Origin: Candidatus Saccharimonadales bacterium
GTDB lineage: Bacteria; Patescibacteriota; Saccharimonadia; Saccharimonadales; UBA4665
Assembly (NCBI GenBank): GCA_035547775.1
Contig: DASZUC010000033.1
Span: forward strand, 1 to 48,743
DNA: 48,743 nucleotides
Direction: 5' to 3'
Within the stretch, counting starts at the first letter, position 1. Each line of letters opens with the position of its first letter. The position numbers and the translations under genes were made by a program. The notes beneath the pieces were generated by a model, which did not search any database, was not told the origin of the DNA, and saw only the letters and a program-made list of their open reading frames with translations. This document shows positions 19,560-42,799 of this stretch, in pieces.

Positions 19560-19628
19560 TGTCATTTCGACCGAAGCGGAGAGATCTTACTTGAGCGCAT
19601 AGATTCCTCGACTGCGCTCGGAATGACA
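19560..19628. repeat. 69-bp imperfect palindromic element (copy 1), MITE/REP/RPE-like
   Basis: tgtcatttcgaccgaagcggagagatct - 13-nt loop - agattcctcgactgcgctcggaatgaca. The arms match as an inverted repeat at 21/28 positions. The first arm matches copy 2 at 25/28 positions (first 16 nt identical). Overlaps the last 22 codons and the stop of comEC. Confidence 0.75.
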
Positions 19629-21058
19629 GTTGTCGCCCCTTTTGTCTTGAGTTGTAGCAGTAGACTCATGCCCAATGCTAGTGTATACAATCCAACCAAT
19701 CCCGACACCGCCAAGCTGAGATGTTGGCGGAAAATGTGCGGAATCCGAGCCAGCAAGTGACTGATATCCAACATATACGTCAATAGAATGCGCGCCGGCC
19801 AAGCCAACCACCCAGCGATCGGACCCACCAACATACCAGCTAAACCAGCGATAGCGCACAGCAACATAGCTAGAGGCACGAGTGATGTCACCAGCACATT
19901 CGCTGGCAAACCAATGAATGAAATCTGCCCGAATGTGAATAACACGAATGGCAATGTCATCAGTTCAGCGCAGGCGCTTTCAAGCGCAATCGATACTACC
20001 ATTGACTCTCGCCAACGCGGTCGCCAGCGAGCTCGAAAACTTGGCGCCACTACCAGCACACCATAGAAGGCCAAAAAACTAAGATACCAACTCGCGTCGC
20101 TCCAGACATACATGGGGTTCAGCCAAGCAGTGAGTGCCGCTGCCAGCACAATCAAATTAAGCGGCTTAAAAGTCCTCCCATAGTACATTGCAACAATACT
20201 TAACATGCTAACTATTGCCGCACGTACGATGGAAGCACTGGAACCAGCCAACAGCACAAAGCTACCTATCAAGCTGAGCGATAGCAGGAGTGATAAGCGT
20301 TTAGAGCGCTCAGCTAACAAGCCCTTGCTGGCCTGCAAGATAATAGTCAGGTTGTAGCCGGACACCGCAATAATATGGGTTAAACCGACCATCAATAAAT
20401 CTTGCTTAACACTGGGTGGCAGCGTAGCACGTTGACCAATCAACAAGCCCAGACCAAATGACGCTAGCGGTTCTGGTAAGGCACTCTGCAAGCCAGCATC
20501 GAACTTCCGGCGCACACTAGCGATGAGTGATGAATGGTGTGCCACGAGCTCCAACTCGGCATAGCTAATCTGCGCCTGGTAGGCGCCCCACCCCGGATAT
20601 AGCTTGCCGCTCACCTGCACTACATCTCCCGCAAAGATCGCTGGCAGCCCAAAACCACTGACTTCAATTTTACCGACTAGCCTCTCGCCAGTGTCGAGCT
20701 GCATATGCGCGGCATCAAAACTGAGCTGCGCATTCGGACCGTACACCGCATCGTCCAAAGCCTGTACGGTGAGCGTAACCCTCTGCTTGCCGAGCGCTCG
20801 GTACGCGCCTAATTTATGCTGATAGAAATTGCCACGATAACCACCAAGGCACAGTCCTAGCCCAGCAACCAATACCAGACCCAACAGCGTTCGGCGCCGT
20901 AACAACACAGCCACAGCAAGCAGGCCGAGACACTTGGCACCACTCGCCCGCCAGCCAATCACCGCCAGACCAATTCCCACCAGAAAGGCCAAGCCACCTA
21001 CGACCCATATAGTTGTCCGCCGAAATTGGTGGTACTTGAGTCGCTGCAGCCTGCCCAC
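19562..21058 (-). CDS. comEC: DNA internalisation channel ComEC/Rec2 (OB/DUF4131 plus competence domain, no metallo-beta-lactamase domain)
   Basis: 498 aa. N-terminal TM helices, an OB-like segment (VTLTVQALDD...GDVVQVSGKL), and a polytopic competence domain with LLMVGLTHIIAVSGYNLTII. The C-terminal 22 aa are encoded by the palindromic element. Confidence 0.85.
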   Translation of the reverse strand: MGRLQRLKYHQFRRTTIWVVGGLAFLVGIGLAVIGWRASGAKCLGLLAVAVLLRRRTLLGLVLVAGLGLCLGGYRGNFYQHKLGAYRALGKQRVTLTVQALDDAVYGPNAQLSFDAAHMQLDTGERLVGKIEVSGFGLPAIFAGDVVQVSGKLYPGWGAYQAQISYAELELVAHHSSLIASVRRKFDAGLQSALPEPLASFGLGLLIGQRATLPPSVKQDLLMVGLTHIIAVSGYNLTIILQASKGLLAERSKRLSLLLSLSLIGSFVLLAGSSASIVRAAIVSMLSIVAMYYGRTFKPLNLIVLAAALTAWLNPMYVWSDASWYLSFLAFYGVLVVAPSFRARWRPRWRESMVVSIALESACAELMTLPFVLFTFGQISFIGLPANVLVTSLVPLAMLLCAIAGLAGMLVGPIAGWLAWPARILLTYMLDISHLLARIPHIFRQHLSLAVSGLVGLYTLALGMSLLLQLKTKGATTVIPSAVEESMRSSKISPLRSK

Positions 21059-21635: not shown

Positions 21636-21712
21636 GGGCCCATAGCTCAGTTGGTTAGAGCAGTGGACTTTTAATCCACGTGTCCCGGGTTCGAGTCCCG
21701 GTGGGCCCTCCA
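21636..21712 (+). tRNA. tRNA-Lys (anticodon UUU), CCA encoded
   Basis: Cloverleaf by hand: acceptor gggccca/tgggccc, D arm gctc-agttggtta-gagc, anticodon arm gtgga-cTTTTaa-tccac, variable loop gtgtc, T arm ccggg-ttcgagt-cccgg, discriminator t, then cca. Confidence 0.92.
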
Positions 21713-21720
21713 ATGAAAAT

Positions 21721-21745
21721 GCCTCAGTCAATGCTGAGGCTTTTT
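21721..21745 (+). terminator. Rho-independent terminator after tRNA-Lys
   Basis: gcctcag-tcaatg-ctgaggc followed by TTTTT. Confidence 0.7.
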
Positions 21746-21768
21746 CATTCAAGGCCCGTCGACACTTG

Positions 21769-22208: not shown

Positions 22209-22856
22209 ATGGAAGCGATGAGTACATTCGACGTAGTCTACCGAATAATCGAAAGAGACCATCCTCGGCTAATCTATATATCTGGTAAAACATCCACAGG
22301 CAAAACCACACTCGCCAACTCTCTCCAAGGCAAATACCATACTGCCATTATCGAGCTAGACAAAATTATTCTTGGTATTGAAGCTCCAAAAGAAATTAAT
22401 AAATTTGTGGCGATCTATCGAAATCGTGATCAAGTTAAGCTGATAGAACTATTTGTTGCCCGTGTTAAGCAGGCCGTTCAAGAAGCGCTAAAAACACACA
22501 AATCAGTTATTTTTGAAGGGGCTATTGCGAACACTAAGACACTGCAGAAGATCGTGGACGCATACCCAAATGACTTTTTATTCATATATTTGACGCCAGT
22601 CAGCTTAGAAGCATACACTGAGCGTCTTACGAGCCGCTTTGTCTTAGCTACACCGCATCATAACTCTGGTTTACCACCAAGTTTCTGGGCACTATTTAAT
22701 GAGAAGGAATTAGCCAATTTTTATACGACGAGAAACATTACTCCGGAGATTCATACCCACATCATCACTTACGCAAAGGCTTCGATGGAAGAGTCTGAAG
22801 CTCGATTAGCGATGTTTAAAGAAGCTTTTCATGACATCCTTGTTCTGACAGTTTAG
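22209..22856 (+). CDS. P-loop NTPase/kinase-like protein
   Basis: Walker A ISGKTSTGKTTLANSL near the N-terminus. Size (215 aa) and layout resemble small-molecule or nucleotide kinases. The substrate cannot be inferred. Confidence 0.6.
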   Translation: MEAMSTFDVVYRIIERDHPRLIYISGKTSTGKTTLANSLQGKYHTAIIELDKIILGIEAPKEINKFVAIYRNRDQVKLIELFVARVKQAVQEALKTHKSVIFEGAIANTKTLQKIVDAYPNDFLFIYLTPVSLEAYTERLTSRFVLATPHHNSGLPPSFWALFNEKELANFYTTRNITPEIHTHIITYAKASMEESEARLAMFKEAFHDILVLTV

Positions 22857-38752: not shown

Positions 38753-40612
38753 TTAATCACGCTTGAGCATAACGGTGAAGGCTTCGGCCGGAATATCAAC
38801 TTTCCCGAAACGCTTAAGGCGTTTTTTACCCTTGGCTTGTTTGGCCAAAACCTTTTTCTTACGACTGACATCGCCACCATACAAGCCGGTGGTGACATCT
38901 TTTCGATAAGCACTAATGTCTTCACGAGCAATGAAGCGACCGCCAATGGCCGCCTGCAAACTAACTTGAAAGTTTTGGCGCGGAATGACTTCTTTGAGCT
39001 TACCGACCGTTTCACGACCCAGCCGATCGGCCTCGCTACGATGCACCATAATACTTAACGCGTTAACTATATCGCCGGCAACGTAAAAATCAACGCGCAC
39101 CAGATCTTCTGCACGATAATCAGCCAGCTCATAGTTGAACGAGCCATAGCCGCTGGTCAGACTTTTAAGTTGATCATAAAAATCGGTTAATAAATTAGCT
39201 AGGGGTGCTTCAAAACTAACCAAAGCTCGTTGATCAACATAACTGAGGTTGGTTTGGAGGCCACGCTTGCCGCTAATCAACTGGATGACTGGCCCGACGT
39301 AATCTTGTGGCACGACAATTTCACCAGTAATCCAAGGCTCGCGAATTTCACGAATCTTGGCTGGGTCGGGCAAATCGGCAGCACTTTTAATGTCGAGCTC
39401 TTCCCCGCTCAACAGACTAATTTGGTAATCGGTTGAGGGGTTGGTGACAATTAGTTCTAAATTATATTCACGCTCCAAACGCTCACGCACGATGTCCAGG
39501 TGGAGCAGTCCTAAAAAGCCAATCCGCACCCCGAACCCAAGCACTGGTGAGTTTTCGGGCGCAAACTGCAAGGCACTGTCGCTCAAACTGAGTTTTTCAA
39601 TGGCATCTTTGAGCTCCTGATAAAACTCATTTGATTCCGGGAAAAAACCGGCATAGACAAAAGGTTGCACGTTGCGATAGCCGGGTAAAGGTTCGGTGGC
39701 TGGTTGGGCCGCCAAAGTGATGGTGTCACCAACACGCGCATCACGCGTGGTTTTAAGATTGGTGACGATGTAGCCAATTTCACCGGCTTGTAGTTTGGCG
39801 CCGGGAGTCATGTCGGGCGTTAAGGCACCAACTTCTAGAGCAATACCTTCGGCACCGGTAGCCAGCATTTTAATCTGACTATTCTTGGCAATGGCGCCAT
39901 TAAATAAGCGTACGTACAAGATCACACCGCGATAATCATCGTAATAAGAGTCGAAAATCAATGCTCGTGTTTCAGTTTGAGCAGAAGTTTTCGGAGCTGG
40001 AACATCGGCCACAATCCGTTCCAGTACCATGTCTACACCTAGTCCGGTTTTGGCTGAGATTTGCAGAATGTCTTCTTTTTTGCAGCCCAGCAGGCTGATA
40101 ATTTCAGCGCTGACGCGGTCTACATCGGCTGCCGGCAGGTCAATTTTATTGAGCACAGGGATGATGGTTAGATCGGCAGCCATGGCTAAATAGACATTGG
40201 CCAAAGTCTGAGCCTGAATGCCCTGGCTGGCGTCAACTACCAGCAAGGCCCCTTCGCAAGCCTGCAGGCTTCGTGATACTTCATAGCTGAAATCGACGTG
40301 CCCGGGTGTGTCGATCAGGTTGAGCTCATACTCCTTGTCATCTCGAGCATCAGCGAGAGATCTTTTTTCTTCTGAAAAAGATTTCTCCCTTTCGGTCGAA
40401 ATGACAGTTTTGGAACGATAAGACATTCTAACTGGTGCAAGCTTAATGGTAATGCCCTTTTCGCGCTCTAGATCCATGCGATCCAAAAGCTGAGCCTTCA
40501 TGTCGCGGGCTTCAACCGTGCCAGTTAACTCCAGCAAGCGGTCAGCCAGCGTCGACTTACCGTGGTCAATATGAGCAATGATACAAAAATTCCGGATATG
40601 GTCCTGCTGCAT
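38753..40612 (-). CDS. lepA: Translation elongation factor 4 (LepA), carrying a ~23-aa in-frame insertion
   Basis: IRNFCIIAHIDHGKSTLADR (G1), RGITIK-type G2 (EKGITIK), LNLIDTPGHVDF (G3), NKIDL (G4), and the conserved C-terminal LKELIPRQ-like motif (LKEVIPRQNF). The extra segment TVISTEREKSFSEEKRSLADARD lies between G2 and G3. Confidence 0.97.
   Translation of the reverse strand: MQQDHIRNFCIIAHIDHGKSTLADRLLELTGTVEARDMKAQLLDRMDLEREKGITIKLAPVRMSYRSKTVISTEREKSFSEEKRSLADARDDKEYELNLIDTPGHVDFSYEVSRSLQACEGALLVVDASQGIQAQTLANVYLAMAADLTIIPVLNKIDLPAADVDRVSAEIISLLGCKKEDILQISAKTGLGVDMVLERIVADVPAPKTSAQTETRALIFDSYYDDYRGVILYVRLFNGAIAKNSQIKMLATGAEGIALEVGALTPDMTPGAKLQAGEIGYIVTNLKTTRDARVGDTITLAAQPATEPLPGYRNVQPFVYAGFFPESNEFYQELKDAIEKLSLSDSALQFAPENSPVLGFGVRIGFLGLLHLDIVRERLEREYNLELIVTNPSTDYQISLLSGEELDIKSAADLPDPAKIREIREPWITGEIVVPQDYVGPVIQLISGKRGLQTNLSYVDQRALVSFEAPLANLLTDFYDQLKSLTSGYGSFNYELADYRAEDLVRVDFYVAGDIVNALSIMVHRSEADRLGRETVGKLKEVIPRQNFQVSLQAAIGGRFIAREDISAYRKDVTTGLYGGDVSRKKKVLAKQAKGKKRLKRFGKVDIPAEAFTVMLKRD
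40336..40406. repeat. 71-bp imperfect palindromic element (copy 2), inside the lepA coding sequence
   Basis: Minus-strand reading: tgtcatttcgaccgaaagggagaaatct - 15-nt loop - agatctctcgctgatgctcgagatgaca. The first 16 nt are identical to copy 1 at 19560. The arms match as an inverted repeat at 20/28 positions. Confidence 0.75.
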
Positions 40613-40688: not shown

Positions 40689-41156
40689 CTAGTTGTAATC
40701 TTTTTCGTATTCTGCGCTGATTGTTTGGAGTTTTCCATCAATGTCGTGATAGGTGAATTTGTAAGCTTGCTCGTCTCCTCGATTGCGGTAATCTAAGTCT
40801 TTGAGGTCACTTATGCTCTGTTTTAAAGTAGTGATATGGCTGTCTTTGCCATAAACATGATCTGGATTTTCCTGAACATCTTCTACCAGTTCACTAAGAG
40901 TTACTGGATATCTTCCGTAAATTGTGTAGTAAAGCGCCAAGACAGACTTAAGGACGGTGGCCGCATCTTTATTCTCTTTAAGCTTTGCGTCATGCAAAGC
41001 TCCACTTGGGGCGTCACTTATGGATGAGGACGGGGCCTTACCCTGGTGATGAGATATAACTACTGTGGCAACAATAACAAGTACTGCAACTCCTAGGCCA
41101 AGAAGCCGATGCATATCATACTGGATGGTGCCTGGAGATTTATGCGCTGTTGTCAT
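40689..41156 (-). CDS. Membrane-anchored hypothetical protein
   Basis: 155 aa with an N-terminal TM helix (LLGLGVAVLVIVATVVI). The extracytoplasmic part contains ALYYTIYGRYPVTLSELV, which faintly resembles pseudopilin globular domains, but there is no prepilin motif. Confidence 0.55.
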   Translation of the reverse strand: MTTAHKSPGTIQYDMHRLLGLGVAVLVIVATVVISHHQGKAPSSSISDAPSGALHDAKLKENKDAATVLKSVLALYYTIYGRYPVTLSELVEDVQENPDHVYGKDSHITTLKQSISDLKDLDYRNRGDEQAYKFTYHDIDGKLQTISAEYEKDYN

Positions 41157-41176
41157 AATTTGTTCCTTGCTTATTA

Positions 41177-41683
41177 CTAATCGTTAAGGTGTTGAATAGC
41201 GTAATCTGCCTGCGCTTCTGTGAATTCCTCGCCATATTGAGAGATTAGCTGGTCGTGAATGGCAGCCGGTGATAGGTTTTGATCATCTTGATATTCTTTC
41301 GCTTTAGCGAGAGCGTTGGCATCCCAATCGGCTTTTACATGTTTTATGGCGTACTTTGCTGCTGCTGCGGAAAACTGGCCACCATAATCGGAGACCAGCT
41401 GGTCGTAGACGCCTTGCTTAGACATATTCATCTCGTTGGCATAGCTGTCGGCCTGGTTGAGAGCTGATAAGTATTCTGCCGGAGTTTTAGGTTGGGGAGT
41501 CGGCTCAGTATCACTAGACTGGCTCACCGTTGAAGTGATGCTACTATCAACGGGTGCAACGTTGCTCGAAGTGCCATCATTCTTACCGCTACTTGTTGCG
41601 GCAGCTACGATACCCACGATTACTAGACCAATAATGACCGGTGCGATTCGATAACGTTTAAACCACTCTGGTTGACTTATCAT
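41177..41683 (-). CDS. Ltp-family (host cell surface-exposed lipoprotein-like) repeat protein, TM-anchored
   Basis: Two Ltp-type repeats: ALNQADSYANEMNMSKQGVYDQLVSDYGGQFSAAAAKYAIKHV and ALAKAKEYQDDQNLSPAAIHDQLISQYGEEFTEAQADYAIQHL. An N-terminal TM helix is present, but there is no lipobox Cys. Confidence 0.75.
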   Translation of the reverse strand: MISQPEWFKRYRIAPVIIGLVIVGIVAAATSSGKNDGTSSNVAPVDSSITSTVSQSSDTEPTPQPKTPAEYLSALNQADSYANEMNMSKQGVYDQLVSDYGGQFSAAAAKYAIKHVKADWDANALAKAKEYQDDQNLSPAAIHDQLISQYGEEFTEAQADYAIQHLND

Positions 41684-41775
41684 TGTCTTTCTCCTTCACT
41701 AATGGTTAATACTTAATTCTTATCATTAAAACAGATCTAAATCAACTTTATTATCACTTATAGTTAATAGACTTA

Positions 41776-42063
41776 GTGGGAGTGAATTGGCACTATCGGG
41801 CCATGGCCCGCACCTCCGCCGCACAGAAACTTGGTAAGCGTCTCAAGCAGTTGAGACATGAAGCAAATTTGACGCAAGAAAAGCTGAGCATTGCTACCGG
41901 CATCAGCCAAACCTACATATCTGGTATTGAAACTGGTCATCGTAATCCTTCTATCAAAACACTCGACAAAATTGCGAAAGCGTTAGGCGTGCGCCTATCA
42001 GACGTTACCAATTTTGATGATTATCGTTTCCGCGATCGCTCACGTTTTAGTCGTCATTTATAG
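41776..42063 (+). CDS. XRE-family helix-turn-helix transcriptional regulator
   Basis: LKQLRHEANLTQEKLSIATGISQTYISGIETGHRNPSIKTLDKIAKALGV is a canonical HTH_3 motif. The ORF-track start is a GTG; an ATG at 41803 is the alternative. Confidence 0.85.
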   Translation: MGVNWHYRAMARTSAAQKLGKRLKQLRHEANLTQEKLSIATGISQTYISGIETGHRNPSIKTLDKIAKALGVRLSDVTNFDDYRFRDRSRFSRHL

Positions 42064-42799
42064 ATTCCTCCGTCTCTTCCATTACACTGACATACCGTTT
42101 GGCCGTAATTATTAAGTGGTCCAGCAGGTCGATACCCAGGAGCTGCCCAGCAGCCACCAGTTGCTTAGTAATATCGATGTCACTGGCCGTAGGCTCCAGG
42201 CGACCCGAAGGATGATTGTGCGCCACAAGCACTGCAATGGCGCTGTGCTCTACCGCTGGCTGAAAAACTTCGCGCGGGTGCACAATATTTGCCGTCAGGC
42301 TGCCCACCGAAATTACTTCGTCATAGATAACCTGATAGCGACTATTCAGATACAGACCGCGCAATTGCTCTTTGTGGCTCTGCCCCATATCTTTCAGATA
42401 CTGATAGGCCTGCCGGGCATTGCGAACCTGGGCTAAACGGCCTGGCTGCTTAACTGCAAATCGGCGGCCCAATTCGAAACTGGCGACTAACTGAGCTGCC
42501 TTTGTGACTGAGATATCCAGCGCTTCACTCAGTCGCTGGGCACTGAATTCGTTGCCCAGGGCTTTATCGCCATACTCTTTGACCGTCCGCCGGGCCATCG
42601 CCAAGACATCTTCTTTAGGGCTGCCTGTGCCCCACACAATCGCCACCAACTCAGCCATCGAAAGATATGCCGGCCCTAATTCCAGCAAACGCTCTCTGGG
42701 CTTTTCATAGTCCGGCAATTCCTTGAAGCGAAGCGTGTAATTGTGCTGGCTATGCAACACCGCATCACGATCCCGCAACAGATAGGCTGGTCCTGTCAT
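42047..42799 (-). CDS. radC: RadC-family JAB/MPN-domain protein
   Basis: N-terminal HhH-like segment (PRERLLELGPAYLSMAELVAIVWGTG). C-terminal JAMM motif VAHNHPSGRLEPTASD. Confidence 0.88.
   Translation of the reverse strand: MTGPAYLLRDRDAVLHSQHNYTLRFKELPDYEKPRERLLELGPAYLSMAELVAIVWGTGSPKEDVLAMARRTVKEYGDKALGNEFSAQRLSEALDISVTKAAQLVASFELGRRFAVKQPGRLAQVRNARQAYQYLKDMGQSHKEQLRGLYLNSRYQVIYDEVISVGSLTANIVHPREVFQPAVEHSAIAVLVAHNHPSGRLEPTASDIDITKQLVAAGQLLGIDLLDHLIITAKRYVSVMEETEESINDD

Follow-up and report, generated by a model that had tools for sequence, protein, structure and literature searches.

In-frame palindromic repeats in essential genes have so far been known mainly from Rickettsia, a few proteobacteria and Opitutus. 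Rickettsia palindromic elements (RPEs; Ogata et al. 2000, as recounted in PMC10969869 and PMC3733652) are described there as palindromes lying in frame within conserved genes of a bacterium with a reduced genome, compatible with the fold of the protein and translated, and two of them, RPE-4 and RPE-6 of R. conorii, are placed by the text of Di Nocera 2013 (PMC3733652) in a superfamily of CGTC/TGTC-tagged repetitive extragenic palindromes (REPs). As characterized in that text, CGTC-tagged REPs carry a tag that is often TGTC, a stem of 8-9 bp beginning A-T, T-A, a loop of 4-5 nt and a short tail, in most cases CCA, that stays unpaired, and occur mostly as inverted dimers able to form one large hairpin; most are extragenic and downstream of genes, sometimes supplying a stop codon, and a minority are intragenic dimers coding for 20-30 aa. 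The same source gives their range as five phyla and reports no associated transposase. A REPIN is a pair of inverted REPs that lie a short spacer apart and fold into a hairpin, and it is the doublet as a whole that is dispersed (Bertels and Rainey 2011; PMC3337134). Here we describe an element of this kind in a 48,743-nt contig of a Candidatus Saccharimonadales bacterium (DASZUC010000033.1, assembly GCA_035547775.1), hereafter the window, where a 71-nt palindrome lies in frame inside lepA, the gene for elongation factor 4 (EF4). An in-frame insertion of the REP/RPE type is an already known kind of event, here extended to another phylum and another host gene; the new part is that unrelated repeats have repeatedly come to occupy one codon junction.

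The lepA gene (38753-40612, minus strand) is a 619-aa open reading frame (ORF) that aligns to solved LepA structures and whose best matches are translation elongation factor 4 proteins of Candidatus Saccharimonadales (Patescibacteria/Candidate Phyla Radiation, CPR); Pfam searches of its protein cluster return GTP_EFTU, GTP_EFTU_D2, EFG_C and LepA_C. The extra segment, S67-K93 (SKTVISTEREKSFSEEKRSLADARDDK), is encoded in frame by 81 nt (40334-40414, minus strand), and 52% of its residues are D, E, K or R. It is missing from the four nearest orthologues (P0002-P0005), which in protein alignment are 89-91% identical to the window LepA, are 592-593 aa long and read VRM[AQR]YKDYELNL, i.e. VRM[AQR]YKDYELNLIDTPGH, at the junction where the window protein reads VRMSYR-SKTVISTEREKSFSEEKRSLADARDDK-EYELNLIDTPGH. 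About 85% of LepA orthologues have no insert at this junction, and excising the 27 codons in silico brings the consensus ...VRMSYREYELNLIDTPGH back in frame. Alignment of orthologues had been suggested in an earlier note on this sequence, and a neighbour-joining tree computed after masking the insert unites the window LepA with the four uninterrupted orthologues in 40 of 40 bootstraps, so that the segment was either gained on the window's own branch or precisely lost in its sisters. The solved structures from A. aeolicus (2ywe) and E. coli (3cb4/3deg) align as two blocks that leave window residues 69-88 unmatched. The note's in-frame addition is thus borne out as a segment that is lacking in the nearest orthologues and largely unmatched in solved LepAs, with the length, measured against those orthologues, corrected from about 23 codons to 27, and its site is indeed between G2 (after T55 of GITI) and G3 (before D101 of DTPG).

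The element itself (40336-40406, minus strand) is, as previously reported, an imperfect palindrome of 71 nt. Its arms at 40336-40367 and 40375-40406, each of 32 nt and 78% complementary, are separated by 7 nt. Folding, which the note had also proposed, gave about -29 kcal/mol on both strands (z-scores of -5.2 and -4.7) with 0 of 200 shuffled sequences as stable, and no other short-range inverted repeat of the window is as strong. We describe it as a tags-outward dimer of a TGTC-tagged REP-like unit that aligns with four other copies of its family. Unit 1, the 5' arm on the coding strand (TGTCATTTCGACCGAAAGGGAGAAATCT; 40379-40406, minus strand), matches the family pattern exactly, with the motif and all the stem pairs that covary across phyla intact; the spacer, as read from the sequence, is 15 nt (40364-40378, minus strand); and unit 2, the inverted arm (TGTCATCTCGAGCATCAGCGAGAGATCT; 40336-40363, plus strand), is decayed, with three mismatches to the motif in a fuzzy pattern scan. 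In a permissive Rfam search the palindrome region matched three microRNA models (best E = 0.18) and the sau-59 sRNA (E = 1.6), all sub-threshold, since they scored 14-21 bits where the gathering scores are 80-100, and at gathering thresholds the only Rfam match in the whole window was a tRNA-Lys.

The first 16 coding-strand nucleotides of the lepA palindrome, TGTCATTTCGACCGAA, are repeated exactly at 19560-19575, as the note had claimed, against a chance expectation of 2e-5 for a given 16-mer in the window; with up to three mismatches allowed, four matches were found and 0.31 expected. This repeat opens a second family copy (19560-19628, plus strand), itself a 69-nt palindrome composed of units at 19560-19587 (plus strand) and 19601-19628 (minus strand) and a 13-nt spacer. 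It has taken the place of the 3' end in a ComEC-like gene (19562-21058, minus strand; Pfam Competence, 1.5e-37), to which the element contributes the final 23 codons and the TGA stop: the C-terminus reads ...KGATTVIPSAVEESMRSSKISPLRSK, and without the element the frame continues to ...KGATTDCEPGPKMLE, a native end 12 codons further. Both window copies are entered by the reading frame as xxT GTC ATT. The frame argument of the note holds, since at a length of 69 nt the terminal AAA TGA CA is in frame and forms the ComEC stop, whereas at 71 nt the same end reads GAT GAC A; the single TGA is thereby out of frame, leaving lepA intact and the element presumably translated.

The search for further copies that the note had recommended brought the family to five, two in the window and three elsewhere in the order. 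The scan for the unit allowed at most five mismatches and covered 1.17 Mb of Saccharimonadales DNA (88 loci from about 85 genomes; for the source organism the copy count covers the 48.7-kb contig), and it found five elements, confined to the window and the loci L001 and L009; shuffled controls gave no match. Within the order, then, the family has a patchy distribution. The five copies align, and the conserved part is a 28-nt unit present at both ends in inverted orientation, TGTCATYYCGASCGMARNNGAGRNRTCT, with variable spacers. Three copies are inside genes and in frame, namely the window lepA copy, a copy in lepA of L001 in which a small GC hairpin is nested in one arm, and a copy in tilS of L001 (L001:1124-1206; VISTEVEKS...SRDDK), and all three share one reading frame, V-I-[SP]-[ST]-E... 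The window and L001 lepA copies are different subtypes of the family in identical position, orientation and frame. Besides the copy that ends the ComEC-like gene, the fifth copy (L009:11923-12013) is intergenic and exactly fills the gap between convergent lepA and ahpC, a classic REP position. As read from the sequence, five of the six reading frames of the 28-nt unit are open, so that a gene would easily tolerate it.

Beyond this order, a pattern scan of one genome per GTDB species found the unit at no fewer than 120 loci across many phyla, where about 0.1 chance matches were expected from the information content of the pattern. The matches listed include Verrucomicrobiota, Acidobacteriota, Bacteroidota, Clostridia, Chloroflexota, Planctomycetota, Gemmatimonadota, Nitrospirota, Proteobacteria and the CPR Moranbacteria, and among them the unit is nearly identical across at least nine phyla, with three stem pairs showing compensatory changes and a tandem G.A that does not vary. 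Also among the matches listed, at least one third of the units are paired with an inverted copy at a distance of 59-157 nt, the others standing alone, and in the other phyla 23% of units lie inside long open frames as compared with 71% of random positions, an approximately threefold depletion that is typical of REPs. Covariation was scored on 37 distinct 28-mers: pair 7-24 is C-G in 18 and T-A in 17, pair 8-23 is C-G in 22 and T-A in 13, and pair 12-19 is C-G in 15 and G-C in 19, while slid partner positions in the same set gave no signal, from which we conclude that each unit is a small stem-loop. The layout is a TGTC tag, a stem of A-T, T-A, Y-R, Y-R and C-G, a tandem G.A/A.G, a closing S-S' pair, the loop CGAAGY and the tail CT; written as AT-YY-C-GA-S ... 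S'-GA-G-RR-AT, the stem has eight positions, comprising five Watson-Crick pairs, the tandem G.A and one closing pair. Every arm begins with TGTC, and no sequence conservation extends outside the 28 nt. The unit also occurs in 17 IMG/VR viral contigs (L211-L227), several of which carry it twice, in one orientation and 2-7 kb apart. Phages were considered as the vector of the cross-phylum spread and set aside, for although 17 viral contigs exceed chance there is no enrichment to build on.

Compared with the CGTC/TGTC REPs as the text of Di Nocera 2013 (PMC3733652) portrays them, the window element has the same unpaired TGTC tag and an eight-position stem starting A-T, T-A, and its unit is likewise dispersed, multi-copy, mainly extragenic and often arranged as inverted dimers. 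It differs in its 6-nt loop (CGAAGY, versus 4-5 nt), its CT tail (versus CCA), the tandem G.A/A.G in mid-stem, and its host phylum, Patescibacteria, which is outside that survey as its text presents it. Judged by their text descriptions, none of the families CGTC-1 to CGTC-4 accommodates the unit, and the mismatch in loop and tail points to a related but undescribed TGTC-tagged REP family. The unit motif is absent from the supplementary files of that paper, a full-text literature search with six motif variants gave no match, and we found no Rfam family or paper describing the exact 28-nt unit; a topic search likewise found no literature on palindromic, in-frame, MITE (miniature inverted-repeat transposable element) or REP elements in Saccharibacteria or CPR. 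Like REPINs, the window element consists of two inverted REPs with a spacer that form one hairpin. It departs from the REPIN/RAYT (REP-associated tyrosine transposase) arrangement in that no RAYT flanked by the window's REP was seen in the window or in the sampled Saccharimonadales DNA, and in that REPIN families are normally lineage-restricted and the 28-nt unit is near-identical across phyla. The analogy to RPEs that the note had drawn is sound as far as published accounts of them go: two TGTC-tagged REP-like stem-loops make up the element as a dimer, RPE-4 and RPE-6 belong by published classification to the CGTC/TGTC-tagged superfamily, and the family lies in frame in the conserved genes lepA and tilS, with the ORF open, one reading frame used by the three gene-internal copies, and a loop position whose exposure is that of a low-confidence model. 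RPE-1-type elements, at about 100-150 bp as given in those accounts, are longer than the 71 nt found here. The lepA observation is thus confirmed, and its reading as an RPE-like in-frame insertion is supported; of the three outcomes that the note had named as refuting it, none was borne out, since the nearest orthologues are empty, further copies exist, and in-frame inserts at this site in independent assemblies of other genomes argue against an artefact.

The junction occupied in the window has been filled many times. Inserts of 12-40 aa lie at exactly this junction in 20 of the 120 closest LepA proteins, and in an annotation-independent sample of 80 further lepA loci fetched by tblastn from metagenomes, nine were filled, with inserts of 11-59 aa; overall, this codon junction holds an in-frame insert in some 15% of about 200 LepAs of Saccharimonadales. 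All nine filled sites of the tblastn sample are in frame and free of stops, a result to be expected only where the insert is translated and selection acts on LepA. On a neighbour-joining tree of the 120 LepAs, Fitch parsimony requires 13 gains or losses (bootstrap range 11-16). A single ancient insertion was considered and rejected, as it conflicts with the empty sister clade (40 of 40 bootstraps), with inserts that cannot be aligned to one another, with the matches of several inserts to repeats of their own genomes, and with the 11-16 changes needed. RPE sites shared among Rickettsia species are attributed to common descent; unlike these, the LepA junction holds unrelated sequences, and the lineages that carry them have nearest relatives with no insert.

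The inserts fall into several types. REP dimers are present in the window and L001; hairpins with arms made of tandem 7-nt units and the complements of these in L008, L010, L176, L199 and L200; plain heptamer arrays in L132 and L147; and other long hairpins in L007, L009, L155 and L171. The insert of L005 (L005:10193-10321) is composite, with GAGTCRC heptamers followed by CGTC-ATTCCCGC-GAAG-GCGGGAAT-CCA and then a small hairpin; its middle part is a textbook CGTC REP by the published description (PMC3733652), and its presence within the composite suggests nested insertions. Half of the inserts fold with z below -2 and about one third below -3, as compared with a mean of -0.3 and 1.3% below -3 for control lepA segments; no hairpin is found in the inserts of L132, L140, L147 and L166. 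The L008 lepA insert matches a site in grpE of its own locus, and those of L199 and L200 match heptamer arrays at L199:12513-12668. Heterocystous cyanobacteria are known to have short tandemly repeated heptamers (STRR). Many of the sister-lineage LepA inserts, as distinct from the window's element, resemble them in being arrays of 7-nt units, and differ from them in that the arrays pair with their own complement into hairpins and lie inside genes. The L199 locus itself carries perfect heptamer arrays (L199:12513-12668 and L199:10198-10264) of TAGTAGG (8 copies), ATTTCCC (9.3 copies) and ATCTACT (3 copies), as well as 3.4 copies of TGGAATA inside its lepA insert; these arrays of a CPR genome resemble STRR. 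In principle, heptamer tracts within ORFs could shift the reading frame.

The same pattern was sought in other proteins by clustering about 1,000 ORFs from Saccharimonadales loci and counting internal insertions of at least 8 aa. Among 88 LepA orthologues, 16 had inserts at 65-67, five at 185-188 and one at 280. Inserts were also present in 8 of 42 TilS orthologues at position 30, in 5 of 48 GrpE orthologues at positions 75-81, in 2 of 38 DnaK orthologues near the C-terminus, and in 4 of 11 orthologues of a DUF8128/TrwB-like ATPase at positions 779 and 856, the last without hairpins. At the protein level, 31 of 65 MurJ orthologues have at least 8 additional residues in one loop, at core position 194, which may be an ordinary variable loop. 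No insert of this size was found in FtsH (54 sequences), HrcA (53) or DnaJ (22), nor in seven further clusters of 8-20 sequences each, and the loci examined encode no other translational GTPase for a homologous-site comparison. The TilS and GrpE inserts are hairpins or heptamer/octamer repeats. Those of TilS (L001:1024-2013, L005:2482-3432, L007:391-1350, L136, L167, L181, L189 and L200) are mutually unrelated and all lie at the loop after LLHLL: that of L001 belongs to the REP family of the window and uses the same frame, that of L007 is an octamer-repeat hairpin with z of about -4, and others contain heptamer repeats. The grpE inserts (L005, L007, L008:14395-14427, L009 and L147) are short and in frame, and several derive from GAGTCAC-type heptamers that also occur in lepA inserts of the same genomes. 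LepA has, in addition, a second and weaker indel hot spot at 183-188, near the end of the G domain, in L009, L010, L140, L144, L145, L146 and L204; L145 has a perfect 17-bp hairpin there (z of -5.1 to -5.5), and the window lepA is empty at this site.

The explanation that we consider probable is that a REP dimer was inserted into lepA and is translated as a charged loop, and that the recurrence reflects repeat insertions filtered by selection to permissive loops. The 71-nt palindrome would be a non-autonomous repeat, two inverted 28-nt TGTC-tagged REP stem-loops with a 15-nt spacer in a REPIN/RPE-like architecture, which would have landed at the codon junction for the tip of the beta2-beta3 hairpin. 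Its product would be a 27-residue, highly charged and probably disordered surface loop; in the predicted structure, modelling of which the note had proposed, the insert does appear as coil between two strands (61-66 and 94-100), and its predicted local distance difference test (pLDDT) score of about 31 makes its exposure a property of a low-confidence model. We infer that the insert is translated and neutral and that the family spread by means of an enzyme acting in trans. The element would persist because the turn tolerates extra residues and not because the host needs them, and other repeat families would gather at the same turn because selection removes insertions almost everywhere else in the conserved LepA. 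Such a filter is favoured by the residues at unfilled junctions, which are the most variable within an otherwise near-invariant stretch, by the five additional residues that the LepAs of E. coli and Aquifex have there by nature, and by the second tolerated site, the unrelatedness of the inserting families and the lack of a shared target or duplication.

Several results weigh against this explanation. The structural model is weak overall (mean pLDDT 57.8), so that the model lends little to the disordered surface loop. There are five elements in 1.17 Mb and in 3 of about 85 genomes, and one arm of the lepA element is decayed, with its three mismatches; the note's description of the family as active is accordingly not upheld, and it may be that the lepA insertion dates far back and that the family has lost its activity. 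No target-site duplication, direct repeat or common target flanks the five family insertion sites, a difference from MITEs in respect of the duplication, and none was seen as a duplication or shared target in the junction alignment of 16 filled and 70 empty lepA sites. Pfam scans of ten ORFs neighbouring the two window copies revealed no transposase domain. With no transposase, duplication or shared target, it is the dispersal of the family that argues for mobility. An HUH/Y1 (RAYT-like) transposase is the obvious candidate for the mobilising enzyme and was not found in the window. As a separate observation, the 1.17 Mb contains a sole Y1_Tnp gene (IS200-like, RAYT/TIRYT-like; L005:20092-20574), bracketed in the region L005:19900-20760 by perfect terminal inverted repeats of about 40 nt, ..AAAAGGCCTACCCTTTTCATCTG / CAGATGAAAAGGGTAGGCCTTTT.., that are unrelated to the unit; a tblastn search with its protein against the window and all Saccharimonadales loci returned the self-match only.

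A bias of the insertion process itself, whether through target recognition by an enzyme, local DNA structure or a landing pad, may act alongside the selection filter, and we think it unlikely to be the principal cause. The concentration of 11-16 gains or losses at one codon junction would be explained by such a bias, as would the window and L001 lepA copies, different subtypes of one family that agree in position, orientation and frame, the composite or nested inserts of L005 (heptamers, CGTC REP and hairpin) and L001 (GC hairpin in an arm), and the single hot site of TilS. However, no flanking motif or duplication is common to the five sites of the family, a shared target is not expected of unrelated insert families, the variability of the junction and the five extra residues in E. 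coli and Aquifex point to a permissive turn, and hairpin inserts also gather at LepA 183-188. A broader form of this idea seems equally doubtful to us, namely that a few precise loops (the LepA beta2-beta3 turn, LepA 183-188, one in TilS and one in GrpE) are recurrent landing sites of hairpin repeats, driven beyond passive tolerance by site-directed insertion or replacement or by selection for loop variability. If true, site-directed landing would be a previously undescribed route by which selfish repeats remodel essential proteins in reduced genomes.

Less probable still is an exapted function maintained by positive selection, in which the mRNA hairpin acts in ribosome pausing, RNase processing or stability, or the charged loop modulates LepA. 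Hairpin potential does recur in unrelated inserts, half of which fall below z of -2 against the control mean of -0.3, and RNA-level action of REPs has been proposed in the literature. Yet four of the inserts form no hairpin (L132, L140, L147 and L166), the insert sequences are not conserved, and the hairpins follow from an origin in palindromic repeats that also occur between genes; above all, some 85% of orthologues, the nearest included, do without any insert, which makes a selected function improbable. That there was no insertion in this lineage, the segment being an old lineage-specific palindromic loop or an assembly chimera, is hardly credible even though the exact protein occurs on one contig as a single-member cluster, because the element shares 16 exact nucleotides and the 28-nt motif with copies dispersed in its own genome and in others, full bootstrap support unites it with a sister clade that has no insert, independent assemblies of other genomes have in-frame inserts at the site (P0032 in NCBI and Logan, P0055 in NCBI and ENA), and a chimera would not be expected to keep the reading frame.

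Filtering of REP-type and other repeat insertions to permissive loops, the explanation we prefer, extends in-frame palindromic repeats to the CPR, whose genomes are small and dense and offer little non-coding DNA to an incoming repeat. The locus is also a natural experiment, with about 200 orthologues, one junction, many unrelated repeats and closest relatives that are empty, and its recurrence separates where a protein tolerates 10-60 extra residues from where repeats insert. The near-constancy of the 28-nt unit across many phyla raises the question of which conserved factor recognises it. There is a practical side as well, in that such inserts may pass for lineage-specific protein features: the precomputed PF01926 (MMR_HSR1) match is lost in all insert-bearing LepAs (P0006, P0020, P0024 and others) and present in the empty ones, showing that inserts of this type degrade domain annotation.

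Two further regions of the window were of note. Between lepA and the major facilitator superfamily (MFS)/MurJ genes, positions 40689-42799 contain an unassigned ORF, an Ltp-type surface lipoprotein (PF07553), a small ORF that is XRE-like by the look of its sequence, and RadC. L003, the closest relative, has the MFS gene directly next to lepA, so this segment of the window is variable and possibly phage-derived. Elsewhere, the 3' end of the tRNA-Lys(ttt) gene (21636-21712) is overlapped by a hairpin with 24-nt arms (21704-21727 and 21734-21757) that are 83% complementary, and downstream of this tRNA and hairpin (21636-21757) lie an unassigned ORF and a Zeta-toxin-like ORF (22209-22856).

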